From Candidatus Omnitrophica bacterium UBA6249 (GTDB lineage Bacteria > Omnitrophota > Gorgyraeia > Gygaellales > Profunditerraquicolaceae): a DNA stretch of 64,000 bases. The notes under the pieces are model-generated. The model did not search any database, was not told where the DNA came from, and saw only the letters and a program-made list of their open reading frames with translations. How positions within the stretch are numbered: position 1 is the stretch's first letter; every line of letters starts with the position of its first letter. Shown here piece by piece: positions 29,336 to 59,243 of this stretch. The stretch is taken from contig DJVT01000009.1 in the NCBI GenBank assembly GCA_002441305.1, positions 76,839 through 140,838 of the forward strand, written 5' to 3'. A program made the position numbers and the translations under genes.

Positions 29336-30270
29336 GGCGCAGCCTTAAGCCGGAGGAATTCAAGAGGATTTTGATTGTGCGTACGGATCGTTTTGGTGAA
29401 TTCCTGTTGAATATCCCGGCGATAGAGTCGGTGAGAAAGATTTGCGATAAAGCAAAAGTTACTTTAGCGGTAGCTTCTCCGGTTAAAGAATTGGCTGAGA
29501 GCTTTGCATGCGCAGATGAGATTGTGGCTTGGGATAAGGGTTTTCTCAAGGGGATGCGCAAGAGAAGATTCGATGCCTGCCTTGTGTTAAACCCTGCCAA
29601 GGAGGCGCACTGGGCGGCTTTTTGGGCCGGGATCCCGGTGCGCGCCGGTTATGACAGGAAGTGGGGATTTTTGCTTACGCATAAAATCAAGGATGAGAAA
29701 CACCTGGGGCTGAAGCATGAAGTGGAGTATAATTTGGAGTTGGCGGGGTTGCTTTTGCCTGAGCGGGCCAAGATCGGTTCATCTGCCTGCGGCAGTATTG
29801 CAACTATGGAAACAAAGGGGTTTGCAATGGCAAAAGGGGCGATCGCCATACATCCTTTTACCAGTGATCCTGTGAAGCAGTGGCCCCTGGAGAGGTTTAT
29901 GGAGTTGGCGGGGAGGATTTCCCGCGAGCTGGGGGTCAAGGTTGTGTTTGTGGGCAAGACGCAGGATGGCCGGGGGATAGAGAGGAATAATGATAATCTG
30001 GAGGCGTTGGATTTAGTTAATAAAACGAGCCTGGTTGAACTTGCCTGTGTGCTTAAACAGTGCAGGCTGCTTGTTACAGGCGACAGCGGGCCGATGCACC
30101 TTGCTGCAGCGGCGGGAGTGCCGGTGGTGGCGCTGTTCAGGAATGACCTGCCGGGAAAGACCGCCAGGAGGTGGGGGCCGGTGGGAAGCGGGCATATGGT
30201 TATAGAAAAGCCGCGTTTGGAAGATATAAGCGTCGAGGAAGTCCTTCTCTATTGTAGACAGTTTATGTAA
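29332..30270 (+). CDS. glycosyltransferase family 9 (heptosyltransferase-like)
   Basis: ILIVRTDRFGEFLLNIPAI and LVTGDSGPMHLAAAAGVPVVALF are GT9 blocks. The last 5 codons and the stop lie inside an inverted copy of the box 2 repeat. Confidence 0.75.
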   Translation: MRRSLKPEEFKRILIVRTDRFGEFLLNIPAIESVRKICDKAKVTLAVASPVKELAESFACADEIVAWDKGFLKGMRKRRFDACLVLNPAKEAHWAAFWAGIPVRAGYDRKWGFLLTHKIKDEKHLGLKHEVEYNLELAGLLLPERAKIGSSACGSIATMETKGFAMAKGAIAIHPFTSDPVKQWPLERFMELAGRISRELGVKVVFVGKTQDGRGIERNNDNLEALDLVNKTSLVELACVLKQCRLLVTGDSGPMHLAAAAGVPVVALFRNDLPGKTARRWGPVGSGHMVIEKPRLEDISVEEVLLYCRQFM

Positions 30271-30372
30271 GTTCTTTATTTTGATAGGATTATGTAAGAA
30301 ATATGCATAAAGCAATAAAGAGTATTTCTTTTGTAACTATATTTATTACAGGCAGTTACATAAACTGTCTAC
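30254..30372. repeat. bipartite intergenic element, head-to-head inverted doublet A (upstream of manC)
   Basis: Reverse arm: gtagacagtttatgtaag (30254-30271), N18, ttatgtaagaaatat (30290-30304). Forward arm: gtatttcttttgtaa (30322-30336), N18, gttacataaactgtctac (30355-30372). The ATG lies 7 nt downstream. Confidence 0.85.
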
Positions 30373-30379
30373 AAAGATT

Positions 30380-31771
30380 ATGACGTATGCGGTGATATTG
30401 GCAGGAGGCGTGGGGAGCAGGTTCTGGCCTTTCTCGAGGGAGCTTGAGCCGAAGCAGTTCATGAGTATCGTCGGCGAAGAAAGCCTGCTCCAGGCGACTG
30501 CGCGCAGGTTAAAGGGCTTGATTGAGCCGGAGAATGTTTACGTAGTTACGAATAGTGTCTATTTTTATGAGGTCAGGGCGCAGTTGGGAGGTTTCGGGAT
30601 CCCGGAGAAGAATATAATCCTTGAGCCGCAGGGCAAGAATACCGCGCCTGCGATCGGCCTTTGCGCGAGGTTGATCGGGCGCAGAGACAAAGACGCTGTG
30701 CTTGTAGTCCTGCCGGCAGACCATTATATAAAGAATGATGTGAATTTCAGGAGCACGCTTAAGAAGGCTATTGCTTGCGCAAGGCAGGATTTCTTGGTGA
30801 CTGTGGGCATAAGGCCGTCTGCTCCTTCTACCGGATATGGATATATAAGGTCAGGAGAGAAGAAGAGCGGTTATATAGAAGCCAGGGAGTTTTTGGAAAA
30901 GCCGGATCTTGCCCGCGCGCGCAGGTATTTTAAAGACAAGCGTTTCTTCTGGAACAGCGGGATATTTATCTGGAAGGCATCGGTATTTATGGATGAGGTG
31001 AAGAAATACCTGCCGGGGCTGTATTCTAAGCTGCGCATTGTTGAGTCGGTTAGGGATATTCCCCGCATCTGGCCCGGGATAAAGCCGATTTCCGTTGACT
31101 ACGGGATAATGGAGCATTCGAAAAAGGTTGCGCTTATCCCCGCCTTTTTTTATTGGACGGATTTGGGAAGCTGGGATGCTTTGGCGGAAGTGTCCCCTAA
31201 AGATAGAGAGGGGAATATCTCAGGAGAGGACACTTTGAACCTGAACAGCCGGGGGGTGTGTGTTTTTTCCCGGGGAAACAGGCTGGTGTCTACCATAGGC
31301 GTAAATGATCTGATAATCGCGGATACGCCCGATGCTCTTTTGGTCTGCGACAGAAACCGCACGCAGGATGTTAAACATCTGGTGGACAAACTTAAGACTT
31401 TGCGGCGCAAGGAGCACCAGGTGCATTTGACTGAGCGCAGGCCGTGGGGCTCGTTCACTGTTTTGCAGAAAGGGCCAGGGTTTAAGATAAAGCTTATAGA
31501 GCTGGCCCCTAAAAAAAGGATCAGCCTGCAGAGGCATAAACTGCGTGCCGAGCATTGGGTGGTTATTTCAGGCACGGCCAAGGTAACCGGTTCGGGAAAA
31601 AGTTACACGGTACGCAGTAACGAGAGTGTCTATATTCCCAAGGGCAGAAAACACCGCCTGGAGAATCCTGCGTCTGCGCCGCTTAAGATCGTTGAGGTGC
31701 AGACCGGGGGTTATCTTGAAGAGGATGATATAGAAAGATTCGACGATGATTTTAAGAGGATGCAAGAGTAG
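30380..31771 (+). CDS. manC: mannose-1-phosphate guanylyltransferase / mannose-6-phosphate isomerase (type II PMI)
   Basis: The N-terminal ILAGGVGSRFWPFSR is an NTP-transferase block. The C-terminal cupin reads RPWGSF...QRHKLRAEHWVVISG...HRLENP. Confidence 0.9.
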   Translation: MTYAVILAGGVGSRFWPFSRELEPKQFMSIVGEESLLQATARRLKGLIEPENVYVVTNSVYFYEVRAQLGGFGIPEKNIILEPQGKNTAPAIGLCARLIGRRDKDAVLVVLPADHYIKNDVNFRSTLKKAIACARQDFLVTVGIRPSAPSTGYGYIRSGEKKSGYIEAREFLEKPDLARARRYFKDKRFFWNSGIFIWKASVFMDEVKKYLPGLYSKLRIVESVRDIPRIWPGIKPISVDYGIMEHSKKVALIPAFFYWTDLGSWDALAEVSPKDREGNISGEDTLNLNSRGVCVFSRGNRLVSTIGVNDLIIADTPDALLVCDRNRTQDVKHLVDKLKTLRRKEHQVHLTERRPWGSFTVLQKGPGFKIKLIELAPKKRISLQRHKLRAEHWVVISGTAKVTGSGKSYTVRSNESVYIPKGRKHRLENPASAPLKIVEVQTGGYLEEDDIERFDDDFKRMQE

Positions 31772-31888
31772 ACAGTTTATGTAATTGCATGCGCTACAAT
31801 ATGTTGCAAAAGAAATATTTAATTTTGAGGTGGGTTCGTATTTGTTTCATAAGCCCAGTTATGAGATGAGGTTATGTAAACTGTCTAC
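31768..31888. repeat. bipartite intergenic element, inverted doublet B (upstream of GT9 gene)
   Basis: Reverse arm: gtagacagtttatgtaat (31768-31785), N18, ttgcaaaagaaatat (31804-31818). Forward arm: gtatttgtttcataa (31838-31852), N18, gttatgtaaactgtctac (31871-31888). Confidence 0.85.
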
Positions 31889-31921
31889 AAAACTTTTTGG
31901 TGTTTGGGGAGAGTCTAACTG

Positions 31922-32995
31922 ATGAAAAGGGTATTAATCATTAGCCCTTTCGGTATCGGCGATGTTCTTTTTACTATGCCGGTTATCCGATCAATCAAGG
32001 AAGCCTGGCCGGAGAGCTTTATCGGTTACTGGTGTAATACCCGGGTTAGTCCGCTTTTGGAAGGGAATCGGAGTATTGACCGGGTGTTTGGGCTTGCGCG
32101 CGGAGACATTAAAAAACTCTTCCGGGAGTCTTTTTTTAAAGGTATGCAAGCGGCGATTAAACTGGTCTGGGAGATAAAGAAAGAGCGTTTCGATATTTGC
32201 CTTGATTTTTCCCTGGAGTATCGTTATAGTCTATTTGCCAAATTTGCCGGAATAGGCAGGCGCGTCGGATTTAATTATAAGGGCAGGGGAAGATTCCTTA
32301 CCGATAAGATAGATGTAGACGGATATTCCGGCAAACATGCGGTGGAATGCGCTAAGGAACTGCTTAAGTTTTTAGAGATTCCGCCTTGCGCGGGAGGGTT
32401 TAGGCTGGATGTCTCTGCCGAGGTTGAGTCGAAGGCTGGGGCGATGCTTCGCGCGGCGGGTATCAATCCGGGTGATTTATTGATCGGGATCGCCCCGGGG
32501 GCAGGAGGGAGCTGGGGCAAGGATGCTGCATATAAACATTGGCCCGCGGTGAAGTTTGCTGAGGTGGCCGGCAGATTGATGGAGAAGCTGAAAGCGAAGG
32601 TTGTTATCCTCGGTGATGAGCAGGAGCGTAAGATCGCCGAGGTTATATTGCATACAATGCGTAGTAAACCGGTGGATTTTACGGGAAGGGTAAAGCTGGA
32701 GGTTCTGCCGGGTATAATCAAAAGATGTTCTTTGTTTATAAGCAATGATGGAGGCCCGTTGCATATGGCTGTGGCGCTTGGCGTAAAGACAGTTTCGGTT
32801 TTTGGCCCGGTGAGCGAGATTGTGTATGGGCCGTATCCTTCGGGGGACCCGAACCATGAGGTGGTAAAACATGATATGCCTTGCCGCCCGTGTTATAATA
32901 GATTCAGGCTGCCGGCTTGCGACAGGGACAAGGAATGTCTTAAGGCTATTGGCGCTGACGAAGTATTTGCGGCGGCGGAGAGGATACTTAGGTAA
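31922..32995 (+). CDS. glycosyltransferase family 9 (heptosyltransferase-like)
   Basis: ISPFGIGDVLFTMPVIRSIK and ISNDGGPLHMAVALGVKTVSVFGP are GT9 blocks. Confidence 0.8.
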   Translation: MKRVLIISPFGIGDVLFTMPVIRSIKEAWPESFIGYWCNTRVSPLLEGNRSIDRVFGLARGDIKKLFRESFFKGMQAAIKLVWEIKKERFDICLDFSLEYRYSLFAKFAGIGRRVGFNYKGRGRFLTDKIDVDGYSGKHAVECAKELLKFLEIPPCAGGFRLDVSAEVESKAGAMLRAAGINPGDLLIGIAPGAGGSWGKDAAYKHWPAVKFAEVAGRLMEKLKAKVVILGDEQERKIAEVILHTMRSKPVDFTGRVKLEVLPGIIKRCSLFISNDGGPLHMAVALGVKTVSVFGPVSEIVYGPYPSGDPNHEVVKHDMPCRPCYNRFRLPACDRDKECLKAIGADEVFAAAERILR

Positions 32996-33045
32996 TATTT
33001 CTTTTGTAATCTTAAGGAGGGCAGGCAGTTGCGTAAACTGTCTAC
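32995..33045 (+). repeat. bipartite intergenic element, single copy D (upstream of degT-like gene)
   Basis: atatttcttttgtaa (32995-33009), N18, gttgcgtaaactgtctac (33028-33045). The ATG lies 7 nt downstream. Confidence 0.85.
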
Positions 33046-33052
33046 AGAGAGG

Positions 33053-34165
33053 ATGAGAGTAGCGGCATTGGATTTGAAGAGGCAGATCAAGCCTATACGC
33101 CGGCAGATAGACGCGGCTATAAAAAAGGCTGTCGATAATACTAGTTTTATACTGGGCGCAGGGGTATCTGAGTTTGAGCGGAATGTTAAGGAGTATTCCG
33201 GGGCCAGGTATGCCGTCGGTGTCTCCAATGGCACGGATGCTATTTCTCTTGCCTTGCTTGCGCTCGGCATAAAACACGGGGACGAGGTGGTTTGCCCTGC
33301 GTTTACTTATTTTGCTACGGCAGGGGCGGTGGCGGCTGTCGGCGCAACGCCGGTATTTGCGGATATAGACAAGGATACTTATAATATTTCCTTGCAGAGC
33401 CTTAAGGATATTCTTTCCAGGAGAAAGAATATCAAGGCGGTCATACCCGTGCATCTTTACGGACAATGCGCGGATATGGGCCAGGTGCTGTCTCTGGCGC
33501 GCAAGTACGGTATTAAGGTAATAGAAGATGCGGCCCAGGCTTTCGGCGCCGAGTATATGGGCAGGAAGGCCGGAACCATAGGGGACTGCGGGGCGGTAAG
33601 TTTTTATCCGGGGAAGAATATCGGGGCATTCGGGGATGCCGGTATGGTGCTTACTAACAATAAAGCAGTTGCGGAAAGACTTTTTATCTTGCGCAACCAG
33701 GGGAACAAGGATAAGTATTACCATTCCCTCCTGGGGCGTAACAACCGTCTGGATGCCATACAAGCGGTTGTGCTTGATGTAAAGCTTAAATATCTCGATG
33801 ACTGGAATAAGGGGCGGGGGGAGGTTGCCTGTTACTATGACCGGTATTTTTCTTCCTGCGCGGTGCAGATTCCTTTCAGGGCCGCCTATAGTACGCATAT
33901 TTACCACCAGTACACTTTAAGGGGAAAGGGTTCGGGAAGGAAAATCGTCGAGCGCCTGCATGAGAGAGGTATCGACGCGCGCGTGTTTTATCCTGTTCCT
34001 TTGCATTTGCAGGAGTGTTTCAAGTGCCTGGGGTATAAGGCGGGGGATTTTCCCGAGGCGGAGGCGGCGGCAAGACATGTGTTCAGTATCCCCGTTTTTC
34101 CGGAGTTAAAGCGGGATGAGAGGGAGTATGTGGCTTCACAGGTGAAGGACGTTTTGGAATCATAG
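33053..34165 (+). CDS. DegT/DnrJ/EryC1/StrS family sugar aminotransferase
   Basis: Recognised blocks: LDLKRQ, VSNGTDAISLAL, EDAAQAFGA. I moved the start from the track's TTG at 33029, which lies inside the repeat box, to the in-frame ATG at 33053. That ATG has a GAGAGG RBS. Confidence 0.85.
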   Translation: MRVAALDLKRQIKPIRRQIDAAIKKAVDNTSFILGAGVSEFERNVKEYSGARYAVGVSNGTDAISLALLALGIKHGDEVVCPAFTYFATAGAVAAVGATPVFADIDKDTYNISLQSLKDILSRRKNIKAVIPVHLYGQCADMGQVLSLARKYGIKVIEDAAQAFGAEYMGRKAGTIGDCGAVSFYPGKNIGAFGDAGMVLTNNKAVAERLFILRNQGNKDKYYHSLLGRNNRLDAIQAVVLDVKLKYLDDWNKGRGEVACYYDRYFSSCAVQIPFRAAYSTHIYHQYTLRGKGSGRKIVERLHERGIDARVFYPVPLHLQECFKCLGYKAGDFPEAEAAARHVFSIPVFPELKRDEREYVASQVKDVLES

Positions 34166-34178
34166 GAAAGGGGCTTGC

Positions 34179-34943
34179 ATGGATAAGATAAACTTAACGG
34201 TAGTAGTGTTGACCAAGAACAGCTCGAAGATAATAGAGGACTGCCTGAAGAGCGTCCATGGCTGGGTGTCGGAGATAGTGGTGGTGGATGATATGAGCTC
34301 CGACGGGACGCTGGATATCGTCAGGAAATATACAGATAAGGTGCATACCAGAAAATGGGACAGGGAGGGCGCGCACAGGAATTTCGCTTATTCCCTGGCA
34401 AAGTGCGATTATATATTGAGCCTTGATTCGGATGAACGGGTGACCCCGGAGTTGAGGGATGAGATTATAAATTTGTTCAAGGAGGGTCCGAAGTTCGCCG
34501 GGTATAATATCCCGCACAGGAATTTTATCGGGGATTACTGGATAAAATACGGGGGATGGTATCCGAATGCCAAATTGAAGATGTATGCCAGGAAGGAATT
34601 CCACTATGAAGAAGAGGCGGAGTATCACCCCCGGGCGTTCTTGAACGGGCAGAGTTATACTCTAAAGTCGGATATAATCCATTATGCCTACAGGGATTTC
34701 CAGAATCTTTTCTCAAAATTAAACCACCAGACGGATTTTGAAGCGAAAAAATGGCTGCGCGACCAGAGGAAGATGAGCTTCGGAAGGTGCATGTTCAAGG
34801 CAGTGACCAGGTTTATCAAGTTTTATTTCGTCAAGAAGGGCAGGAAAGACGGTTATATCGGTTTTATGATGGCGCTTGCCTCCAGCGCCTACCAGTTGAT
34901 GACGTACGCCAAATACTGGGAAGCGAAGAATAAAAATAAATGA
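34179..34943 (+). CDS. glycosyltransferase family 2
   Basis: LTVVVLTKN, VVVDDMSSDGT and LSLDSDE are the recognised blocks. Confidence 0.7.
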   Translation: MDKINLTVVVLTKNSSKIIEDCLKSVHGWVSEIVVVDDMSSDGTLDIVRKYTDKVHTRKWDREGAHRNFAYSLAKCDYILSLDSDERVTPELRDEIINLFKEGPKFAGYNIPHRNFIGDYWIKYGGWYPNAKLKMYARKEFHYEEEAEYHPRAFLNGQSYTLKSDIIHYAYRDFQNLFSKLNHQTDFEAKKWLRDQRKMSFGRCMFKAVTRFIKFYFVKKGRKDGYIGFMMALASSAYQLMTYAKYWEAKNKNK

Positions 34944-35494
34944 AGGCTGTTTTTCTGGACAGGGATGGGGTGATAAATAAGTATCCCGGGGACAGGATGT
35001 ATGTTACCTCCCTTAAAAAGTTTAAGTTTCTCCCCCGGGCGAAAAAGGCCGTTGCCCTGTTGACCGGGAAAGGTTACAGGATCTTTATCGCTTCTAACCA
35101 GGCCGGGGTAGGCAGGGGTATTTACGCGCAGAGCACCCTGGATAAGATTACTTTGCGTATGACCGAAGCCCTCGAAAAGGAGGGCGGCAGGATTACGCGG
35201 GCTTATTACTGTACCCACCGTAAGGATGCCGGATGCGCCTGCCGTAAGCCCAAGCCCGGCTTGCTCAAGAAGGCTGCCAGAGAGTACGGGTTAGATCTTG
35301 AGAAGGCGTTTTTTGTGGGGGATACTATCCGCGATGTGCTTACCGCAAAAGCGGCAGGGTGTAAATCCATTCTCGTCCTCACCGGCAAGGAAAAACTGAA
35401 AAACCGGCAACGTTGGGAGGCGGAGCCGGATTTCGTATTCAAGGATCTTTTGTCCGCGGCGGAATTCTTGTGTAAACCAATAAGGAACAGGTAG
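34940..35494 (+). CDS. gmhB: D-glycero-D-manno-heptose 1,7-bisphosphate phosphatase (HAD-IIIA)
   Basis: FLDRDGVIN, SNQAGVGRG, the Zn motif CTHRKDAGCACRKPKPG, and GDTIRD. Confidence 0.8.
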   Translation: MKAVFLDRDGVINKYPGDRMYVTSLKKFKFLPRAKKAVALLTGKGYRIFIASNQAGVGRGIYAQSTLDKITLRMTEALEKEGGRITRAYYCTHRKDAGCACRKPKPGLLKKAAREYGLDLEKAFFVGDTIRDVLTAKAAGCKSILVLTGKEKLKNRQRWEAEPDFVFKDLLSAAEFLCKPIRNR

Positions 35495-35511
35495 TTACAT
35501 AAACTGTCTAC
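35461..35511 (+). repeat. bipartite intergenic element, single copy E (upstream of MGDG-synthase-like gene)
   Basis: ggaattcttgtgtaa (35461-35475, inside the end of gmhB), N18, gttacataaactgtctac (35494-35511). The ATG lies 6 nt downstream. Confidence 0.8.
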
Positions 35512-35517
35512 ATAAAT

Positions 35518-36609
35518 ATGAGGGTGCTGGTTACGTATGCTTCGGCGGGAGCCGGGCACCGCAGGGTAGCCGAGGCTATATACGCGTATTTGAAAGAGAG
35601 CCGCGGGGAGGTCGATGCCGTATTGTCCGACATCCTGCCTTTTACCGGCAAGCTTTTCCGTTTTTCCTACAGCGCGGGCTATCCTTTTTTAATCAATCAT
35701 GCCCCCTGGCTGTGGGGGTTCTTTTTTTGGCTTACCGGTCCGAGCATTTTCCGCAGGCCTGTCCGCGCATTGGCCAGGATGGCGAATTATTTAGGGTGCA
35801 TGCGGTTTGCCGCTTACCTGCGCAGGGAAAGATTCGATTTTATCATCTCCACACATTTTTTGAACTCCGAGATCGCCGCGGGATTGAAGTCTAAAGGCAG
35901 GATATCTTCCAGGCTGATTACGGTGATTACCGATTTCGGCGTGCATCCTTTTTGGGTTTCCCCGGGGATCGATATTTACGCAGTTGCCTCAGAGGCGACA
36001 AGGGAGAAGCTTAAGGAGATGGGGGTTGCGGATAAACAGGCGATGGTTTCCGGTATCCCCTGCGGCGCGCCTTTTCTGAAAAAAGCAGACCGGGGCAGCC
36101 TGTGTTCGAAGCTTGGTATAGAACAGGGTAAATTTACGGTTTTGCTTATGACCGGTTCTTTCGGTTTCGGCCCGCTTGGGGAGATTGCTGAAGCTGTCAG
36201 CGAGGCAGCGCAGGTTCTGGTTGTCTGCGCAAGGAATAACAGGCTGCTGGAAAGAATGTCGAAGAAAAAGCCGGTGAATATAAAGGCGTTCGGTTTTGTC
36301 GGCAACATAGAGGAGCTTATGGGCGCAAGCGATATTATAATTACCAAGCCAGGAGGATCGAGCATTGCCGAGCTTCTTGCCATGGGGTTGTTTCCTGTTT
36401 TTATATCCGCCATACCCGGGCAGGAGCAGGAAAACGTAAAGGTGCTCTCTTCATGCGGCGTCGGCTATTCATGCGATAATGTCAGGAAGGTAAAGGATTT
36501 TGTTTCCAGGCTCAGGGACAACCCCGCAGAGCTTGAAAGATTGAGAGGTAATGTCTTGAAAATATCCAGGCCCTTTGCCTGCCGGGAGATATGCGATGCT
36601 ATACGCTAA
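35518..36609 (+). CDS. MGDG-synthase-like / processive diacylglycerol glycosyltransferase (GT28)
   Basis: The N-terminal ASAGAGHRRVAEAI and the C-terminal ITKPGGSSIAELLA are typical of the MGDG synthase/UgtP family. Confidence 0.7.
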   Translation: MRVLVTYASAGAGHRRVAEAIYAYLKESRGEVDAVLSDILPFTGKLFRFSYSAGYPFLINHAPWLWGFFFWLTGPSIFRRPVRALARMANYLGCMRFAAYLRRERFDFIISTHFLNSEIAAGLKSKGRISSRLITVITDFGVHPFWVSPGIDIYAVASEATREKLKEMGVADKQAMVSGIPCGAPFLKKADRGSLCSKLGIEQGKFTVLLMTGSFGFGPLGEIAEAVSEAAQVLVVCARNNRLLERMSKKKPVNIKAFGFVGNIEELMGASDIIITKPGGSSIAELLAMGLFPVFISAIPGQEQENVKVLSSCGVGYSCDNVRKVKDFVSRLRDNPAELERLRGNVLKISRPFACREICDAIR

Positions 36610-38455
36610 GGTTGTCCTAGGCCTGCCTGTAGACGGGCCGTTCGATTATCTTGTGCCGGCCGGCCTGGAGGGCAAGATGCGTATCGGCGCCAGGGTATGG
36701 GTGAATTTCCGCAACAAGAAAGAGGTCGCTTATGTCACCGGCCTTACCGCCAGGACGAAGATTAAAAATATAAAAGAGATTTCTTCTTTGATCGACATTA
36801 TCCCCGCCATCGATGATGGGATGATGTCTTTGTGTTCCGGCCTTGCGGAGTATTACTGCTGTTCTTTGGGTGAGGCGATCGAGACCGCGCTTCCTGAGGG
36901 GCTGAGGAAAGGGAAGGAGGTTTTGTCCCCGGTCGCTTCGGCTTCCGGCGGCAGCCTCGCAATGACAAAAACGAATGATCCGGCAGTGGCGGGGGGGATG
37001 CCGGTTTTTGTCCGGGGCCAGGACAGGATGCCTGTTTATTTGAAGTATATAAAGGAAGCTTTGGCCTCCGGGCGTTCGGCGATAATCCTGTTCAGCGATA
37101 TACGCGAGGCCGAAGAGGCCAGGGGGAGGATTGCCAGGGATTCGGGGGCGGAGGTGTTTTCGGTCTTCCGCAAACAGCCGGGGGAGCTTGAGATCTGGCA
37201 GTCGATCAGGGGCTTGTCCAGTTGCGTTGTCGTGGGCACCCGTTCCGGCATCTTTGCCCCGGTAAATAACCTGGGCCTTGTAATAATCGACCGTGAACAG
37301 GACCAGGTTTATAAACAGGAGCAGGCGCCCCATTACCACGCCAGGCAGGCGGCTTTGATGCGCAGCAGGATATGCGGGGCAAAACTTGTTTTAGGCGGGA
37401 CAGTCCCCTCTTTGGAAAGTTTTTTTCTCTTCCGCGAGGGCAAGCTTCAAGTCGAGGACTTGCCTTCGCAAAGCCTTTATCCTGCGGTGCAGGTTATCGA
37501 CAACAGGAGGCTGGCTTACGCGGACAGGAAATCCAAGCCCGTGATTTCGAAGTTCCTGTCGGATGCAATCTTTAAGGTCCTTTCGGATAAAGGGAAGGTG
37601 CTGGTATTTATCGAGCGCAAGGGGTTTGCCACGAGCGCGTTCTGTCATAATTGCGGGGCGCCTTTAAAATGCCCGCGATGCAGTATAAACCTGGTTTTTC
37701 ATTTCGACGAAGACAAGTTAAGGTGCCACCATTGCAATTTCAAGATGGATGTGCCGAAGATCTGCCCGAGCTGCAACTCCGGATATATTAAATATTCCGG
37801 ACTCGGCACGGAAAAACTGGAAAGCGAGCTTGCCAGGATGTTCCCTCAGGCGCGCATAGGGATAATAGGGGAAGGGGATGCCGAACTTGGCAGCGCGGAT
37901 ATTTTTGTTTCTACCAGCGTGGTGCTCAAACACCGTAATTTGAAGTTTGACCTGACGGGGGTAATCTCTATAGATAATTCCCTGAACCGGGTTGATTTCC
38001 GCGCGGCAGAGAAGGCATTTTCCCTGCTCACCGAACTGGCGGGCCGGAGCGCTAGGATGGTCATACAGAGCGCCAACGCCGGGCATTATTGTTTTAGGGC
38101 GCTGGTAAAGAATGACCAGGGGTTATTCCTGCAGGAGGAGCTGCGTCAGCGTAAACAGTTGAATTTTCCCCCGTATAAGCATATGATATTGCTTAAGCTC
38201 AGGTCGGCAAGCCTGAGCAAGGTAAAAGATGCCTCGGCGGGCCTTTTCGAGAAGCTGGGCAGCATTAAAAGCGCGAGCGTAAAATTGCTTTCGCTCAATC
38301 CGTCTCAGCCGGCCAAGTTAAGGGGGAACTTTTATTACCAGATACTGATGCGCGCCTCGCGGGCGGAGAAGGCGGCGCGTTTTTTAAGGCCGTATCTGAA
38401 GGACGGCAGTTTTTCGGGCGTAATCGTGACAGTGGATGTGGATCCGGTGATATGA
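36596..38455 (+). CDS. priA: primosomal protein N' (PriA) with degenerate helicase motifs
   Basis: The N-terminal VLGLPVDGPFDYLVP..G.RVWVNF and the Cys4 x2 zinc region (CHNCGAPLKCPRC...CHHCNF...CPSCNS) are PriA-like. However motif I reads GQDRM and motif II reads DREQ. The ATG at 36596 is preferred over the TTG at 36575. Confidence 0.8.
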   Translation: MLYAKVVLGLPVDGPFDYLVPAGLEGKMRIGARVWVNFRNKKEVAYVTGLTARTKIKNIKEISSLIDIIPAIDDGMMSLCSGLAEYYCCSLGEAIETALPEGLRKGKEVLSPVASASGGSLAMTKTNDPAVAGGMPVFVRGQDRMPVYLKYIKEALASGRSAIILFSDIREAEEARGRIARDSGAEVFSVFRKQPGELEIWQSIRGLSSCVVVGTRSGIFAPVNNLGLVIIDREQDQVYKQEQAPHYHARQAALMRSRICGAKLVLGGTVPSLESFFLFREGKLQVEDLPSQSLYPAVQVIDNRRLAYADRKSKPVISKFLSDAIFKVLSDKGKVLVFIERKGFATSAFCHNCGAPLKCPRCSINLVFHFDEDKLRCHHCNFKMDVPKICPSCNSGYIKYSGLGTEKLESELARMFPQARIGIIGEGDAELGSADIFVSTSVVLKHRNLKFDLTGVISIDNSLNRVDFRAAEKAFSLLTELAGRSARMVIQSANAGHYCFRALVKNDQGLFLQEELRQRKQLNFPPYKHMILLKLRSASLSKVKDASAGLFEKLGSIKSASVKLLSLNPSQPAKLRGNFYYQILMRASRAEKAARFLRPYLKDGSFSGVIVTVDVDPVI

Positions 38456-39423
38456 AGATAATATTTTTTGGAAGCGCACATTTTGCAGTTCCTTCCCTTA
38501 AGGCCTTGATCAAAAGCGGCCATGAGGTATCCTGCGTGGTTACCCAGCCGGATAAGAAAAAAGGCAGGCATATGCATTTATCCGGCACGGACGTAAAGAC
38601 TACCGCGGAGAAAGCGGGCCTTGAGATTTTTCAGCCGGGGGATATCAAAAGTAAGGAGAGCGTGGAATTCCTCAGGGGCTTTAAGGCGGATATTTTTGTT
38701 ATCGTGGCTTACGGCCAAATCCTTTCCCAGGAGGTGCTGGATATACCTAAAATCATGCCGCTTAATATACATGCTTCGCTGCTGCCGCGTTACCGCGGGG
38801 CCGCCCCGATAAATTGGGCGATCATCAATGCGGATAAGAAGACAGGGGTAAGCATCATGTATGTGAGCCTGAAGATGGATTCCGGGCCGGTAATCATGCA
38901 GAAGGAGATCGGCATAGATAAGCAGGATACGGCGGTAAGCCTGGAGGAGAAGCTGCGCCTTTTAGGGGCGGAGCTGCTTATGGATGCGCTCAAGGCGATA
39001 GAGGAAAGGGACTACAGGCTTATCGAGCAGGATGAAGAGAAGGTGATTATTGCCCCTAAGCTCAAGAAAGAGGACGGGTTGATCGACTGGAGCGCGCATG
39101 CTCCGGATATCCATAACCAGGTCAGGGGCGTACTGCCGTGGCCGGGGGCCTTTACCGTTTACCGCGGCAAGATGCTTAAAATTTTTAATACGGAGACAAT
39201 AGCGGCGTTCCCCGGCCATAAGCCTGTCCCGGGAGAGATTGTCAGGGCGGATAAGCATGAGATAGTGGTTGCCTGCGGAAGAGGTTTTTTGAGCATACGG
39301 GAACTGCAGATTGAAGCGGGCAGGCGTATGTGCGCGCATTCTTTTGTCGTAGGCCACAGGCTTAAGGCCGGTGAGGTCTTGGGGAGTTCTCATATTCGTC
39401 ATTCCCGCAATGACACAAAATAG
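38452..39423 (+). CDS. fmt: methionyl-tRNA formyltransferase
   Basis: MKIIFFGSAHFAVPSL and HASLLPRYRGAAPINWAI are characteristic. ATGA overlap with priA. Confidence 0.9.
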   Translation: MKIIFFGSAHFAVPSLKALIKSGHEVSCVVTQPDKKKGRHMHLSGTDVKTTAEKAGLEIFQPGDIKSKESVEFLRGFKADIFVIVAYGQILSQEVLDIPKIMPLNIHASLLPRYRGAAPINWAIINADKKTGVSIMYVSLKMDSGPVIMQKEIGIDKQDTAVSLEEKLRLLGAELLMDALKAIEERDYRLIEQDEEKVIIAPKLKKEDGLIDWSAHAPDIHNQVRGVLPWPGAFTVYRGKMLKIFNTETIAAFPGHKPVPGEIVRADKHEIVVACGRGFLSIRELQIEAGRRMCAHSFVVGHRLKAGEVLGSSHIRHSRNDTK

Positions 39424-39451
39424 TTGCAAGTTAGGGCAGTTCTGTTATAAT
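39424..39451 (+). promoter_or_regulatory. sigma70-type promoter, leaderless geometry (galT-like operon)
   Basis: TTGCAA (39424-39429), 16-nt spacer, TATAAT (39446-39451), then 8 nt to the ATG at 39460. No RBS. Confidence 0.7.
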
Positions 39452-39459
39452 TAAAATCT

Positions 39460-40482
39460 ATGCCAGAGTTAAGGAAAGATCCGATTATAGGTAGATGGGT
39501 AATTATTGCCACTGAGCGCGCGCGCAGGCCCGACCAGTTTTCCGGCCATAAGGAGCACGACGAACAGGGGGAGTGCCCTTTTTGCGAAGGGAGAGAATCC
39601 AATACGCCCCCTGAGATTTATGCCATTCGCCCGCGTAACCCCGCCCGCAATCAGCCGGGATGGGATTTGCGGGTAGTCCCGAGCAAATTTCCTTTTTTAA
39701 AGATAGAGGGTGACCTTGACCGCCGCGGAAACGGCATCTATGACGTGATGAACGGCCTCGGAGCCCATGAGGTAGTGATCGAGACCAACCAGCATATCGC
39801 CAATATGGCGGATTTGAGCGAGGAGCAGATTACCAGGGTGCTCAATTGTTACTCCGACAGGATAACCGACCTGGAAAAGGATCTCAGGCTTAAATATGTG
39901 CTGGTGTTTAAGAATTACGGTAAAGGCTCCGGAGGGGGAGCGATAAGGCATTCCCGCTCGCAGTTGATCGCCACTCCCGTCAACCCCAAGCGGGTAAAAG
40001 AGGAGCTCGCCGGGGCAAGGCGTTATTATGAATACCATGAGCGTTGTGTTTTCTGCGACTTGATCAAACAGGAGCTTGAGCAGAAGGAGCGCGTGATCGC
40101 CGAGTTCGACGGCTTTGTGGCGGTTGCGCCGTTTGCGGCGAGATTTCCCTTCGAGACCTGGATTTTGCCGAAGAACCACTGCTGCGATTATACTTGTATG
40201 GACCCGGATTCGAGGAGGCATCTTGCCCGGGTGCTCAAGAGCGTGCTTCTTAAGCTGAAGGTGGGGTTGAACGATCCGGATTACAATTACGTTATCCATA
40301 CCGCACCGTTCCGCAGGCAGAAGACCGGCTACTGGAAGACAATCGACCACGATTACCATTGGCATATCGAGATTATGCCGCGCCTGACAAGGGTGGCGGG
40401 TTTTGAATGGGGGACGGGTTTCTATATCTGTCCGCTTCCTCCTGAGGAGACAGCGAAGTTTTTAAGAGAGGTGGAGATTTAA
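39460..40482 (+). CDS. GalT-family (HIT superfamily, galactose-1-P uridylyltransferase/ADP-glucose phosphorylase-like) protein, atypical active site
   Basis: CPFCEG, GAHEVVIE and YHWHIEIMP are conserved, but the HPHxQ motif is replaced by HSRSQ. Confidence 0.75.
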   Translation: MPELRKDPIIGRWVIIATERARRPDQFSGHKEHDEQGECPFCEGRESNTPPEIYAIRPRNPARNQPGWDLRVVPSKFPFLKIEGDLDRRGNGIYDVMNGLGAHEVVIETNQHIANMADLSEEQITRVLNCYSDRITDLEKDLRLKYVLVFKNYGKGSGGGAIRHSRSQLIATPVNPKRVKEELAGARRYYEYHERCVFCDLIKQELEQKERVIAEFDGFVAVAPFAARFPFETWILPKNHCCDYTCMDPDSRRHLARVLKSVLLKLKVGLNDPDYNYVIHTAPFRRQKTGYWKTIDHDYHWHIEIMPRLTRVAGFEWGTGFYICPLPPEETAKFLREVEI

Positions 40483-40483
40483 G

Positions 40484-41485
40484 ATGCCAGAGCTGAGGAG
40501 AGATCCGGTTGTGGGCAGATGGGTGATTGTGGATACAGACCATCCTAACAAGCCGGAGGATTTCGAATACGAGCGTTATGTGCCGGCAGGCGGGCTGTGC
40601 CCGTTTTGTTACGGCAACGAGTTTATGACTCCTCCGGAGATAAGCTGTTTCCGCGATCCTTCCACTGCGCCGAACAGCCCCGGCTGGCAGGTGCGCGTGG
40701 TGGCGAACAAGTTTCCCGCATTGCAGATAGAAGGTGATCTTGACCGCAGGGGCATAGGCATCTACGACATGTCAAACGGCGTGGGCGCACATGAAGTGCT
40801 CATCGAGACCCCTTACCATAATAAGGATATTCCCGAGCTCCTGCCGCATGAGATAGAAAGTTACCTGAGGATGTGCTGTGTGCGCGCCGCAGACCTGAAG
40901 AGGGACAGCCGTTTTAAATACATTATGATCTTCCGTAATTACGGGTCGGCCGCCGGAGCATCGCTGGAGCATCCGCATACCCAGCTTATCGCGCTGCCCA
41001 TGGTCCCGAAGAATGCGCTGGAGGAGATACACGGAGCGCAGAATTACTATAACTACCGGGAGCGCTGTATTTACTGCGACATAATCCGCCAGGAGCTGCA
41101 GGATAAGGTCAGGCTGATTACGGAGAACAAGAGCTTCATTTCTTTTTGCCCGTTTGTCTCAAGGTTCCCGTTCGAGATTATGATTATGCCCAGGCAGCAC
41201 AGCGGGTATTTTTGCCATATGAACGACGGCCAGCTTTCCGACCTGGCGGCGATATTGAGAGAAACGCTGGCGAAATTAAAAAAAGTATTTGAAAATTTGT
41301 CATATAATTATATAATTCATTCTGCGCCTATTAACGGTGATTCTGACGTAGAATATTATCATTGGCATCTTGAAATCATGCCTAAGCTGACGCAAGTAGC
41401 AGGTTTTGAATGGGGGACTGGTTTCTACCTTGATCAAACCTCGCCTGAATTAGCCGCGCAGTATTTAAAAGCCGTAAAAGAATAA
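40484..41485 (+). CDS. galT: GalT-family nucleotidyltransferase (canonical HPHTQ active site)
   Basis: CPFCYG, GAHEVLIE, EHPHTQLIALP and YHWHLEIMP are all present. The start is 1 nt after the stop of its paralogue. Confidence 0.8.
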   Translation: MPELRRDPVVGRWVIVDTDHPNKPEDFEYERYVPAGGLCPFCYGNEFMTPPEISCFRDPSTAPNSPGWQVRVVANKFPALQIEGDLDRRGIGIYDMSNGVGAHEVLIETPYHNKDIPELLPHEIESYLRMCCVRAADLKRDSRFKYIMIFRNYGSAAGASLEHPHTQLIALPMVPKNALEEIHGAQNYYNYRERCIYCDIIRQELQDKVRLITENKSFISFCPFVSRFPFEIMIMPRQHSGYFCHMNDGQLSDLAAILRETLAKLKKVFENLSYNYIIHSAPINGDSDVEYYHWHLEIMPKLTQVAGFEWGTGFYLDQTSPELAAQYLKAVKE

Positions 41486-41552
41486 TCCCCTACAAAGCAG
41501 TAGGTAAGATATCGTGATAATTTATCAATAATATCAAGTAAGGAGGAGAGAA

Positions 41553-42605
41553 ATGGCTGTTAAGGTTGGTATAAATGGTTTTGGAAGGATAGGCCGCTTG
41601 GTGGCCCGGGCGATTATGGAAAAGAATTCCAAGGATATCGAGCTGGTGGCAATCAATGATTTGACCGACGCCAAGAGCAACGCTTATCTTTTTAAATACG
41701 ATTCCGTGCACGGGCGTTTCGACGGAGAGGTCAAGGCGACGAGCGAGGATGTGATCTCGGTCAACGGCAAGGATATCAAGGTTTTGAGCAAGAGGGACCC
41801 CGCCGAACTCCCCTGGAAGGACCTGGGCGTTGAGATAGTCGTGGAATCGACCGGTTTGTTCACAATCAAGAAAGACGGCATCAATAAAAAAGGCAAGCAG
41901 GTAAAAGGCGCGGAGAACCATATAACCAAGGGCGGCGCCAAGAAAGTTATCATTTCCGCCCCTGCCCAGGATGAGGATATAACTATTGTTATGGGCGTGA
42001 ACGAGTCGAAATACGACCCGAAGAACCATAATGTGATCTCCAACGCTTCCTGCACTACCAACTGCCTTGCTCCTATTTCGAAGGTAATGAATGATAAATG
42101 GGGCATTGTCAAAGGGCTGATGACTACGATACATTCTTATACCAATGACCAGAAGGTGCAGGATATGGCGCATTCGGATTTGCGCCGCGCCCGCGCCGCA
42201 GCGGTTTCCATGATCCCTACTTCTACGGGGGCAGCCAAGGCAATATCCCTGGTTATCCCGGAGTTAAAAGGGAAGCTGGACGGGTTTGCCATACGCGTGC
42301 CCACGCCGAATGTCTCGGTAGTCGATCTGACCGTTACTCTTGGCAAAAAGGCGAGCGTAGAAGAGTTGAACGCCGCTTTCAAGGAGGCTTCCGAAGGGGC
42401 AATGAAGGGTATTCTCGGGTATACCGAGGACCCGGTGGTATCGGTTGATTTCAACCATTGCAAGTTAAGCTCCATACTCGATGCAAAAAGCACCAAGGTT
42501 ATCCAGGATGATTTTGTCAAAGTGCTCTCCTGGTATGACAATGAATGGGGTTATTCCAACCGCGTAGTTGACCTGTGTGAGTATATCGTAAATAAAGGGT
42601 TATAA
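41553..42605 (+). CDS. gap: glyceraldehyde-3-phosphate dehydrogenase (type I)
   Basis: INGFGRIGR and [12 protein letters not shown] are diagnostic. RBS aaggagga. Confidence 0.95.
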
Positions 42606-42625
42606 GAGCGGGAGGAAACAAGAAA

Positions 42626-43813
42626 ATGGCAAAACTGACCTTGAAGGATGTCGATTTAAACGGTAAGACGGTGCTGGTGCGCGCGGATTTCAATGTCCCG
42701 CAGGACGCCAGTTTGAATATTACGGATGATACCCGTATCAGGGCGACTATCCCGACCTTGAAGTATATCCTTGAGCATGGCGCAAAGAAGCTTGTGCTGA
42801 TGAGCCATTTGGGCAGGCCGGACGGAAAGGCCGTGCCTAAATACAGCCTTAAGCAGGTGGCGATCCGCCTGAAGGAGCTTCTGGGTACGGATGTCCTTTT
42901 CCTCGGCGATTGCGTGGGGGAGGGTATCAAGCCGGATATCGATAAATCGAACGAGAAGGTGGTTTTGCTGGAGAACCTGCGTTACCATTCCGAAGAGGAG
43001 GGTAATGATGCGGATTTTGCCAAACAGCTGTCCTCTCTGGCGGATGTTTTTGTCAATGACGCTTTCGGTACCGCCCACCGGGCGCACGCTTCTACCGAAG
43101 GAGTAACGCATTATCTAAAGTCATGCGCCGGGCTGCTCCTGGAGAAGGAGATAAAATACCTGGGTGATTCTCTTAAGAATCCCGAGAAGCCTTTCGTGGT
43201 GATCCTGGGAGGGGCAAAGGTATCGGATAAGATAGGGGTTATCGAAAACCTCCTGCCTAAGTGCGAAGCGATAATCGTGGGCGGGGGCATGGCCTATACT
43301 TTTCTCAAGGCGCAGGGAAAACAAATCGGCAATTCCAAACTGGAGAAGGACAAACTGGACCTGGCTAAATCCATATTGGATAAAGCCAAGGAATTAAACA
43401 AAGAGATCCTGCTTCCTGTGGATAATGTAGTGGTCGACAATATAGACACTGCGGCAAAGAGCGAGGTCTGCGGGGAAGACGTCCCTGAAGGTAAGATTGC
43501 AGTGGATATCGGGCCGAAGACGGTCAAGCTGTTTGAGGACAAGCTAAAGACGGCGAAGACAATCGTTTGGAACGGGCCGATGGGTATATTCGAGATGGAT
43601 GCCTTCAGTAACGGCACTCGGGAATTGGCCGGTTATATCGCCGCCCTGCCAGGCTGCATTTCGATTATCGGAGGAGGAGATACCGCTGCGGCGGTGGCTA
43701 AGTTTAAACTGGAAGACAGGATGACGCATATATCAACCGGCGGAGGCGCGAGCCTGGAGTTCCTGGAAGGCAAGGAACTGCCGGGAATTAAGGCGCTTAC
43801 AGATAAGGAATAA
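42626..43813 (+). CDS. pgk: phosphoglycerate kinase
   Basis: [15 protein letters not shown] and [13 protein letters not shown] are diagnostic. Confidence 0.95.
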
Positions 43814-43814
43814 G

Positions 43815-44582
43815 ATGAGAAAAACGATTATCGCGGGAAACTGGAAGATGTACAAGACAATTAAAGAGGGGCAGGTTTTGGTTGCCGCTTTGAAAAGAGA
43901 ATTGTATAAGATAGAGAATACGGATATTGTGGTATGCCCGCCTTTTACCGCGTTGGCTTACCTGGCCGACGACTTGAAGGAGAGCAATATTTCCGTAGGG
44001 GCCCAGGATATCTATTGGCAGGAGGAGGGGGCTTTTACCGGAGAGGTTTCCCCGGCGATGCTCAAGGATGCGGGGTGCCAGTATGTGATTATCGGGCATT
44101 CCGAGCGCAGGCAGTATTTCGGGGAGACTAACGAGACGGTGAACAAGAAGATCAAGGCTACTCTCAAGGCCGGGCTTTTTCCGATCATGTGCGTAGGAGA
44201 AAACCTGCAGGAGAGAGAGGCCGGCAAGGCATTCGAGGTGATCGAGGACCATGTCGCCAACGGGCTGTCTGAAATAAGCGCAGAGGAAGTATTGAAGATG
44301 GTAGTTGCTTATGAGCCGGTTTGGGCGATAGGAACAGGCAAGACCGCCACTCCCGAACAGGCCCAGGAGGTTCACGCCTTCATCCGCGGGCTGCTCAAGA
44401 AAAAATATGGGCAGGAGGTTGCCGGGAACATCAGGATCCAGTACGGCGGAAGCGTCAAGCCGGAGAATATCACGGAGCTGATGAATAAATCGGATGTGGA
44501 CGGCGCCTTGGTCGGCGGGGCAAGTTTGAAAGCGGATTCTTTCAGCGCCATAGTTTCCAGGGCAAGCGAGGTTACGAAATGA
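43815..44582 (+). CDS. tpiA: triose-phosphate isomerase
   Basis: [14 protein letters not shown] and [11 protein letters not shown] are diagnostic. Confidence 0.95.
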
Positions 44583-44959
44583 TGACTTTTATAATCATAA
44601 TTCATGTGATTGCCTGCGCGGTATTAATTACTTTGGTTTTGATACAGCGCGGCAGAGGCGGTGGGCTGGTTGAGAGTTTCGCGGGGGTGGAGTCGATGTT
44701 CGGGACAAAGACGAGCAGCTTCCTTACGCGTACCACCACGATTATGTCGATAGTTTTCTTTTTTACTTGTTTGAGCCTTGCGGTGCTTTCCGTCAAGCAG
44801 AGTAAGTCATTGATGCGCGCGGTGAAGACTGAAACAAAACAGCAGTCCGTCAAACAGGAGCCTTCCAAGGCAGATGCCGTTAAAACGGAGACGGTAAAAT
44901 CGGAACCGGCAAAAGCAGATGCGGGACAAGCCCCTGTTGCACAAGAGAAGAGTAAGTAA
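44579..44959 (+). CDS. secG: preprotein translocase subunit SecG with Lys/Glu/Thr-rich C-terminal extension
   Basis: LIQRGRGGGL...FG...FLTR is the SecG core, in the gap-pgk-tpiA-secG order. The C-terminal ~45 aa contain two VKTET...EP(S/A)KADA repeats. Confidence 0.8.
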   Translation: MMTFIIIIHVIACAVLITLVLIQRGRGGGLVESFAGVESMFGTKTSSFLTRTTTIMSIVFFFTCLSLAVLSVKQSKSLMRAVKTETKQQSVKQEPSKADAVKTETVKSEPAKADAGQAPVAQEKSK

Positions 44960-44982
44960 CAATAAACAATCTTACATAATTT

Positions 44983-45013
44983 AAGGCTACCAGATTACCT
45001 GGTAGCCTTTCTT
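44983..45013 (+). terminator. rho-independent terminator after secG
   Basis: An 11-bp stem, AAGGCTACCAG (44983-44993) pairing with CTGGTAGCCTT (44999-45009), with a 5-nt loop, followed by TTTCTT. Confidence 0.65.
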
Positions 45014-45015
45014 AT

Positions 45016-45137
45016 GTAGACAGTTTATATAACTGTCTGATTTTATTTAAGTTACAAAACAAATACGCGAGGTTGAAAAAAAGGGAGTATTTCTTTTGTA
45101 AACTTATATATCGCAATTAATTGCGTAAACTGTCTAT
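45016..45137. repeat. bipartite intergenic element, inverted doublet C (upstream of transporter gene)
   Basis: Reverse arm: gtagacagtttatataac (45016-45033), N18, ttacaaaacaaatac (45052-45066). Forward arm: gtatttcttttgtaa (45087-45101), N18, attgcgtaaactgtctat (45120-45137). The ATG at 45136 overlaps the box end. Confidence 0.85.
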
Positions 45138-52064: not shown

Positions 52065-52141
52065 CTATGTAGAGATATGAATAGGTTTGTATTATTTTAG
52101 GTTACAATGTATCTTTATGTAAAAGAATGTAAACATTTTCC

Positions 52142-59213: not shown

Positions 59214-59243
59214 TGAGTGAGGGGATAGGTGTATTTTACAGGA

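Follow-up and report, generated by a model that had tools for sequence, protein, structure and literature searches.

What are the long palindromes that lie across gene junctions in the genome of Candidatus Omnitrophica bacterium UBA6249, how did they come to overlap the ends of genes, and do they act as DNA or as RNA? The stretch analyzed here, called the window throughout, comprises 64,000 nucleotides (nt) of contig DJVT01000009.1 (assembly GCA_002441305.1, positions 76,839 to 140,838). A sequence-only reading had described three elements, at 30254-30372, 31768-31888, and 45016-45137 (doublets A, B, and C), in each of which a reverse-oriented half-element faces a forward one, and had proposed that the halves are promoters or that the whole acts as a folded transcript. 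A profile of the 52-nt half-element, from which all arm positions given below were taken, places both arms at each of the three sites in head-to-head inversion. On balance we favor a model in which the doublet is a mobile palindrome whose gene-proximal arm supplies expression signals to the gene downstream.

The half-element and its geometry

The half-element is a bipartite sequence of 52 bp that consists of box 1 (TATTTsTTTyrTAAC, in its fuller form (a/g)TATTTsTTTyrTAAC), a 17-nt spacer, and box 2 (GTTAyrTAAACTGTCTAC, with the family-wide variant GTTAyrTAAA(CT/AC)GTCT). Ten copies are present in the window, six of which form the three doublets while four are solitary (Table 1). The ten good window copies align without gaps, as do 47 unique arms from all sources, and the spacer is thus invariably 17 nt long. 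With at most one mismatch allowed, 14 matches to the box 2 core TAAACTGTCTA were counted in the window where 0.82 would be expected, a number attained in 0 of 100 shuffles. For box 1 the count was 11 and the expectation 1.38. Core matches with one mismatch but no recognizable box 1 at the right distance lie at 13041-13051, 11744-11754, 6445-6455, and 58888-58898; that at 13041 is in the gap before a gene at 13069 and may be a decayed copy.

The order reported earlier for the reverse half (box 2', spacer, box 1') was borne out, while the spacer length needed correction: in the register used here it measures 17 rather than 18 nt. The doublet centers measure 15 to 18 nt. Each palindrome of about 120 bp had also been credited with two conserved stems. 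Inverted repeats are indeed found in all three, with 71% complementarity over the 52-nt arms of doublet A, 88% over the outer 17 nt of doublet B, and 100% and 93% over the outer 11 and inner 15 nt of doublet C. The inner stem of doublet B is poor, however, because its forward box 1 reads GTATTTGTTTCATAAG.

Nearly all genes of the window lie on the + strand, and the overlap of the doublets with upstream gene ends is real. The GT9 open reading frame at 29332-30270 terminates (..L Y C R Q F M *) within the reverse box 2 of doublet A, and the manC frame at 30380-31771 terminates at the TAG of GTAGACAG in doublet B, both as first described.

Distribution of the family

The closest homologues of the ManC, AlaRS, and major facilitator superfamily (MFS) proteins of the window are labeled Candidatus Omnitrophota or Omnitrophica. 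A scan of 185,579 species genomes, one per prokaryotic species, with a box 2 16-mer returned 83 loci, approximately the number expected by chance; the remainder of the element was present only in 9 of these, which belong to seven Candidatus Omnitrophota genomes. The full element is missing from all 75 viral loci with the 16-mer, and a phage origin was dismissed. Scanning metagenomes for the doublet pattern yielded 14 further true doublets, among them copies almost identical to A, B, and C that all come from the sample behind Ga0265297 (L099, L096, L094; L numbers designate the loci compared). A literature search turned up no paper on the motif or on a comparable repeat in Omnitrophota, and Rfam gave no match at the gathering threshold over the whole window; between 30000 and 36000, with E values up to 10, there were only chance-level matches.

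In other Omnitrophota genomes nearly every copy is a doublet of 108-136 bp; the window holds three doublets and four singlets. Several copies per 8-14 kb are found in L069, L027, L090, and L091, and the loci of such doublet-rich genomes share no genes with the window. The arrangement, which had been called unusual, is therefore the standard form in several Omnitrophota species. Doublets lie between same-strand genes in 21 of 22 cases and typically occupy the entire intergenic gap with margins of roughly 5-30 nt, one outer box being a few bases from, or over, the upstream stop codon and the other a few bases from the downstream start. The genes served are very diverse (manC, GT9, MFS, PCMT, Fic, MazG, Lgt, Rpe, and others).

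Several related structures were encountered in these searches. Three reverse arms (L091 7535-7600 and 12548-12610; L109 7377-7470) are followed by a divergent partner, GTTAGAyT ... TkCGTCwATTG, with a good Shine-Dalgarno sequence, so that two apparent reverse singlets in L091 and one in L109 are doublets with a divergent arm. This partner looks like a second type of forward arm that escapes the profile, which would make the family more diverse than counted. A mini-palindrome of box 2', a 17-nt spacer, and box 2, without box 1, is present at L066 3484-3532. A different palindromic repeat of ~125-135 bp (TTGTCTTAGACAGTTTATGCAAATTAAT...), found in metagenome contigs L089, L092, L098, and L102, shares only the 11-mer TAGACAGTTTA with the element.

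Recent insertion of doublets A, B, and C

Relatives whose ManC is 70-78% identical to that of the window have kept the gene order Wzy-GT9-manC-GT9-DegT-GT2-HAD-MGDG synthase-PriA-Fmt-GalT. In all five syntenic relatives the GT9/manC and manC/GT9 junctions are 1 nt wide or overlapping, and in L105 a GAGGG Shine-Dalgarno sequence precedes manC. The homology of the first window GT9 to its L105 counterpart ends at ..ISVEEV, just before doublet A, and the native C-terminal tail has been replaced; the second window GT9 lacks ~15 N-terminal residues, which in L105 are encoded where the gene overlaps manC. The manC stop occupies the identical codon position in both. At the secG/MFS junction of two relatives with MFS proteins 78-81% identical (L188 and L189), the terminator is followed directly by the MFS start, and it is exactly between the secG terminator and the MFS ATG that doublet C sits in the window. 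Comparison of orthologous junctions in relatives, suggested in the sequence-only reading as a check, thus failed to reveal doublets A, B, or C in any of L105-L109, L188, and L189.

Because the same junctions are tight, overlapping, or occupied only by a terminator in the nearest relatives, doublets A, B, and C are, judged by synteny, recent lineage-specific insertions that trimmed gene ends. Their overlap with upstream genes is accounted for by landing in junctions that are tight in relatives. An open frame across a doublet in L103, considered as an in-frame insertion, looks accidental.

Other palindromes were seen in the same gene neighborhoods. L106, L107, and L109 at the DegT and MGDG junctions, and also L188 and L189, have tight junctions without the element. 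A hairpin family (AAAGGGGACGGTTCTATTTTT ... AAAAATAGAACCGTCCCCTTT) lies in gene junctions of half-element-free relatives (L188 7195-7260; L189 480-560 and 9915-9985), including the HAD/MGDG and secG/MFS junctions, where the window bears arms; the palindromic repeats that occupy a given junction thus differ between lineages. L107 has two long palindromes, almost perfect and unrelated in sequence, in junctions of the same conserved cluster (16940-17050 and 19940-20090).

Spread of the doublet as a unit

The non-box parts of a doublet are both spacers and the center. Median non-box identity over all doublet pairs is ~52%. It rises to 73-74% where doublets at separate loci of a single genome are compared (the L069 pair; L008 versus L019) and to 97-98% between two copies in L090 and between two in L027, the latter preceding the unrelated genes PCMT and Fic (BLASTP E = 38 between the proteins). 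In one subfamily the arms are distinct, the arm with spacer TAACTGTGTTGTAAGAT always being directed toward the downstream gene and that with spacer TCATTTATTATCAAACA always toward the upstream gene. Since subfamilies share non-box parts at unrelated loci, these identities indicate that doublets propagate as units.

Several traits of MITEs (miniature inverted-repeat transposable elements) are present. All doublets have terminal inverted repeats with an outer 17-18 bp of GTAGACAGTTTAyrTAAC / GTTAyrTAAACTGTCTAC; they are small (108-136 bp), non-coding, and dispersed in many copies, with 10 arms in the 64-kb window; and A, B, and C are polymorphic for presence at orthologous sites. A TA lies inside the conserved ends (G-TA-GACAG...CTGTC-TA-C) and may be either a duplication or part of the element; at doublet C, AT flanks GTAGAC..CTGTCT.

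Accessory-looking genes are bracketed by the repeats in two instances, a Fic gene between two 98%-identical doublets (L027 2868-4035) and a Bro-N gene between a reverse and a forward arm (L109 7326-8364). Both instances hint at a possible additional role of the repeats, as places where accessory genes recombine or land.

Conservation of solitary forward arms

The solitary forward arms before the DegT and MGDG-synthase genes are at the same place in the window, L105, and L108. That between recX and alaS is shared by the window, L110 (from the same genome as L105), L111, and L112, whose AlaRS proteins are 69-74% identical to that of the window, and the arm at 52014-52065 has a degenerate copy at the same place in L110. 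At the DegT, MGDG-synthase, and alaS sites the orthologues retain box 1 (..TTGTTTTGTAA.) and box 2 at fixed spacing around a spacer of unconserved sequence, which is the footprint expected of a protein that binds a bipartite site. The start codon comes no more than about 10 nt later at these sites and lacks a Shine-Dalgarno sequence. The L105/L110 genome has an orthologous copy at each of the three sites, and all read (A/G)CGTCTT, versus CTGTCTAC in 10 of 10 window copies. That box 2 changed in concert among the copies of a genome points to a common trans-acting reader; gene conversion is less likely. Solitary arms face the start of the downstream gene at ~9 independent sites and point the opposite way at 2-5. 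Taken at the level of sequence, the solitary forward arms are old and constrained.

The arm before alaS also bears on annotation. The database call for AlaRS (894 residues) begins at a TTG at 59248 and runs through the half-element, while the N-terminus shared by homologues is at the ATG at 59296 (878 residues). The half-element family probably causes systematic over-extension of gene calls. Between the 52014-52065 arm and smc lies a small HTH_17-type gene (52177-52359) that has its own 12/12 consensus promoter at 52142-52170; a homologue of 51 residues is called in L110.

Table 1. Arms, doublets, and associated signals in the window and, in the last row, in relatives
Feature	Position	Strand	Remarks
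Doublet A, reverse arm	30254..30305	-	Box 2', 17-nt spacer, box 1'; provides the final codons (..YCRQFM) and TAA stop of the upstream GT9
Doublet A, variable center	30306..30320	.	
Doublet A, forward arm	30321..30372	+	47.3 bits; manC ATG (30380) 7 nt past box 2, without Shine-Dalgarno
Doublet B, reverse arm	31768..31819	-	TAG at 31769-31771 is the manC stop codon
Doublet B, forward arm	31837..31888	+	Degenerate box 1; followed by a 33-nt leader with GGGGAGAG and the ATG (31922) of the second GT9
Solitary arm, DegT-type aminotransferase (ATG 33053)	32994..33045	+	Starts at the stop codon of the upstream GT9; orthologous in L105, L108
Solitary arm, MGDG-synthase-like gene (ATG 35518)	35460..35511	+	Box 1 within the HAD hydrolase 3' end; orthologous in L105, L108
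secG intrinsic terminator	44983..45009	+	11-bp stem and T-run
Doublet C, reverse arm	45016..45067	-	Begins 6 nt past the stem of the secG terminator
Doublet C, forward arm	45086..45137	+	MFS transporter ATG (45136) overlaps the final box 2 bases (..CTGTCTATG)
Solitary arm after hairpin and T-run 3' of the ETF-alpha gene	52014..52065	+	77 nt upstream of the 12/12 sigma-70 consensus promoter 52142-52170
Solitary arm between recX and alaS	59243..59294	+	alaS ATG (59296) 1 nt past box 2; orthologous in L110, L111, L112
Leaderless-type layout before the GalT-like gene, relatives	L105 20280, L106 18805, L107 21088, L109 18784, L188 78, L189 4483		

Start codons and the promoter question

Of ~30 gene-proximal arms, 18 have a start codon placed -3 to +10 nt relative to the box 2 end and lacking a Shine-Dalgarno sequence. 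Examples are the starts of MFS (..CTGTCTATG), alaS (..GTCTACGATG), and the L108 DegT gene (..CGTCTTATG); that of MFS, at 45136, is backed by homologues of 381-386 residues. The other gene-proximal arms are at least 15 nt from the start, and most of these genes have a Shine-Dalgarno sequence or a sigma-70 promoter of their own. A leaderless-type layout also exists apart from the element, as TTGCAA-N17-TATAAT-N8-ATG precedes the first GalT-like gene in the window (39425-39462) and in six relatives (Table 1).

Doublet C is the sole DNA between the secG terminator and the MFS ATG, and with the terminator upstream the start signal for MFS is forced to lie within the doublet. At manC the insertion split a Shine-Dalgarno sequence from its ATG, which would be harmful unless the element supplied start signals of its own. 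Taken together, the coupling to start codons, the leaderless layout, and the position of doublet C are most economically explained by a promoter located in the gene-proximal arm. No forward arm matches the sigma-70 consensus TTGACA-N16-18-TATAAT (A-11, T-7), while true consensus promoters exist nearby, e.g., the 12/12 match at 52142-52170. The forward arm is most likely a promoter, as far as the arrangement of boxes and starts can tell, and what recognizes it would not be the housekeeping sigma-70 consensus machinery; the role of reader could fall to an alternative sigma factor, to an activator, or to some other DNA-binding protein. Of the earlier suggestion that half-elements are promoters, the part that concerns the forward half gains indirect support from conserved solitary arms at start codons, although not in the form of a sigma-70 promoter.

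An extracytoplasmic function (ECF)-type reading was also tried. AAC-N17-GTT fits the two most conserved dinucleotides and GTCTA resembles an ECF -10 element; it is kept as a lead only. A resemblance to a Pho box or to LacI-type operators amounted to partial matches and was set aside.

Proposed model and alternative explanations

In the model that we favor, the doublet is the complete copy of an Omnitrophota-specific interspersed repeat of ~108-136 bp, with two inverted 52-bp arms around a short variable center, each arm being a bipartite protein-recognition site rather than an RNA structure. It propagates as a unit, presumably in a MITE- or Correia-like manner, into the few bases between co-directional genes, and landing in such narrow gaps explains why the outer boxes abut or replace the upstream stop and the downstream start region. 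The gene-facing arm would supply expression signals, with transcription starting in or just after box 2, and the transcripts would be leaderless or have very short leaders without Shine-Dalgarno sequences. That arm would be held by selection over long periods, even when solitary, while the reverse arm would be the mirror-image end of the mobile unit, which nothing shows to be needed after landing. Should the arms be promoters, antisense transcription from the reverse arm into the upstream 3' end would be expected.

A number of observations weigh against this model. Promoter activity is deduced from geometry. Every box 2 register, checked by hand, fails as a sigma-70 -10 element at -11 or -7, with G frequent at the would-be A-11 and A or C at the would-be T-7; an ECF-type promoter is opposed by the lack of a conserved GGAAC at the right distance and by a variety of genes beyond that of typical ECF regulons. 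Start-codon positions relative to box 2 scatter between -3 and +10 nt, without the peak that strict leaderless starts would give. Of 155 genes called in relatives, only ~50% show a clear Shine-Dalgarno sequence (AGGA, GGAG, or GAGG upstream), and MFS has none even in relatives without the element; as about half of the genes do without one anyway, its absence argues less for the element driving expression. At three sites (window 52014-52065, L108 9916-9964, and L091 13136-13182) the forward arm lies upstream of an ordinary sigma-70 promoter and so is not the sole promoter there. Reverse arms score only ~5 bits below forward arms in the profile and hence are not obviously decaying. As to mobility, a target-site duplication could not be defined, there being no direct repeat outside GTAGAC...GTCTAC, and the 64-kb window contains no transposase, nor did one with matching ends turn up in scans limited to patterns of at most 600 bases.

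A more specific version of the model, which we put forward tentatively and consider rather doubtful, would make the half-element the promoter of a clade-specific alternative sigma or polymerase-recruiting factor, spread as a mobile doublet that splits tight operons into separately initiated units whose transcripts are leaderless or have very short leaders. This would amount to a self-propagating regulon in which cis-sites and trans-factor co-evolve, as the change from CTGTCTAC to (A/G)CGTCTT at three orthologous sites suggests. If it were true, antisense transcripts would run systematically from doublet reverse arms into upstream 3' ends.

It is unlikely, in our estimation, that the element is a purely selfish MITE- or REPIN-like repeat with no host function, its boxes being transposase sites (an outer and an inner one per terminal inverted repeat) and the genes being expressed by read-through from starts free of Shine-Dalgarno sequences. 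Much of the doublet would suit such an element: the terminal inverted repeats, the small size, the insertion polymorphism, and subfamilies homologous over their full length. Reverse arms almost as conserved as forward ones, and a host in which half the genes, MFS among them, dispense with a Shine-Dalgarno sequence regardless, would suit it as well. What it accounts for poorly are the solitary forward arms, which persist at orthologous sites across 69-78% protein identity with boxes and 17-bp spacing intact and spacers scrambled, and which are biased toward facing a gene start; neutral relics would decay and gain indels, whereas here box 2 changed in concert within a genome. The toleration of an insertion that splits the former Shine-Dalgarno sequence of manC from its ATG also speaks against it.

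Less likely still is an operator array without a promoter, at which a global DNA-binding protein, whether regulatory, nucleoid-associated, or acting as a roadblock, would bind the palindrome as a symmetric oligomer and modulate or insulate transcription that crosses the junction. Two conserved boxes at rigid spacing around a free spacer are a classic protein footprint, both orientations occur, some arms stand upstream of ordinary sigma-70 promoters, and co-evolution with a trans-acting factor would suit the concerted box 2 change. Such an array would nevertheless leave the box 2-abutting start codons without Shine-Dalgarno sequences unexplained, as well as the orientation of solitary copies toward downstream genes and, unless a promoter were hidden in the doublet, transcription of MFS past the secG terminator; the functional diversity of the genes served fits it badly too.

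RNA folding

The sequence-only reading had also pictured read-through transcripts folding into a long interrupted hairpin. The doublet units of 119-122 nt fold better than shuffles on both strands (z -3.5 to -7.1). Covariation was assessed on 20 doublets oriented by gene direction, and every variable column pairs as under independence (e.g., 0.80 versus 0.74, 0.60 versus 0.57, and 0.55 versus 0.45 expected); the two 17-nt spacers pair only at chance level. Solitary arms, folded with their flanks, do not surpass shuffles (z -1.1 to +0.3). The folding energy of doublets arises because the boxes occur twice in inverted order, and the lack of covariation, together with unfolded solitary arms, argues that an RNA hairpin is not the selected feature, contrary to that part of the earlier proposal. 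The hairpin still forms if a doublet is transcribed, and RNA side-effects are possible. Doublets as wholes were not flagged as intrinsic terminators, the only match being a copy-specific 9-bp stem in the reverse arm of doublet C. A within-arm hairpin (TGTAAC/GTTACA) holds in some window copies but not family-wide, CATAAC with GTTACA being common.

ERIC elements, like Correia elements, are processed at the RNA level. A doublet could similarly be an RNase III processing site, an mRNA stabilizer, an insulator, or a terminator when read through. For this speak its folding on both strands, the comparable processing of Correia elements (PMC2649163), and the upstream arm of subfamily b, in which TAGACA-N16-GATAAT reads inwards and would place the box 1'/box 1 stem at the transcript 5' end. 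We consider an RNA-level element very improbable, as the arms pair as under independence and the spacers at chance, the longest-conserved copies are solitary arms with no significant structure, the family does not conserve complementarity between the two boxes of an arm, and there is neither an Rfam match nor a U-tract.

Comparison with known repeats

The Correia elements (CREE/NEMIS) of Neisseria generate promoters at either or both ends that control adjacent genes (PMC2649163), and by behavior they are the closest analogue. Both are palindromic intergenic repeats of ~100-150 bp with terminal inverted repeats, many copies, and presence/absence differences between related genomes, and transcribed copies of both can fold into hairpins. 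Unlike the Correia element, the repeat described here belongs to a different phylum, has no apparent similarity, on inspection, to the CREE consensus, and has bipartite arms with a rigid 17-bp spacer whose outer box is abutted by start codons; its promoter activity is inferred, its solitary arms are kept at orthologous sites over deep divergence, and an integration host factor (IHF) site and a TA duplication could not be shown.

In REPINs an inverted doublet is the replicating unit and singlets are left over, and they are extragenic and persist vertically for long periods (PMC3116915, PMC3337134). The doublet as unit and the singlet as relic are parallels. The REP sequence itself, however, is a short hairpin, which the half-element is not, given its unconserved internal complementarity and unfolded solitary arms, and the singlets here are orientation-biased and conserved rather than decayed. 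RAYT-like Y1_Tnp genes are present in related Omnitrophota genomes, but the ones seen in L111 and L112 have another repeat, GGGACGTCC.., on their flanks and not the half-element. The gene encodes a 196-residue Y1_Tnp protein (PF01797) at the same syntenic place in both (L111 3207-3797 and L112 2461-3051, - strand), with inverted GGGACGTCCT..ACCC repeats on either side, and the whole looks like a RAYT with its REPs. The syntenic gap of the window (56806-56884) contains no Y1_Tnp gene, and the GGGACGTCCT repeat is not enriched in the window (5 matches versus 3.8 expected).

Other small, non-coding palindromic repeats are found in operons and gene junctions, among them ERIC/IRU, RUP, and BOX, of which ERIC is conserved across genera, and identical promoter-bearing segments that precede unrelated genes are known as "mobile promoters." Compared with ERIC/IRU, RUP, and BOX, the present element is of another sequence family and another host phylum, has unusually rigid arms, and comes with no identified cognate insertion sequence. 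MIRU repeats of mycobacteria lie within operons and their ends overlap the upstream stop and downstream start, as is the case here, but they are direct tandem repeats with small coupling open reading frames, whereas the present repeats are inverted and have no conserved small frame. Integron attC sites were considered and rejected: in GTTAyrT a pyrimidine stands at a position that calls for a purine, TTGTAAC departs from RYYYAAC, and the flanks are syntenic core genes rather than cassettes. Bacterial MITE-like repeats are the subject of reviews (PMC2229807, PMC10969869). We place the element among them as a new family of MITE-like, putatively promoter-bearing palindromic repeats, not as a new mechanism. 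It is set apart by the rigid bipartite arm and by the long retention and concerted change of solitary arms.

Implications

To our knowledge, nothing is known about transcription initiation in uncultured Omnitrophota. A rigid 52-bp motif at gene starts that is shared between species and can be scanned for would offer a handle for predicting transcription units, for correcting start codons such as that of AlaRS, and for searching for the factor that reads it. The family also provides a clean natural example of a mobile palindrome that enters overlapping junctions, trims gene ends, and replaces a Shine-Dalgarno-dependent start, one of its arms apparently being domesticated afterwards. If the arms do act as promoters, the spread of promoters by a mobile repeat would extend beyond the few model genera in which it has been documented so far.

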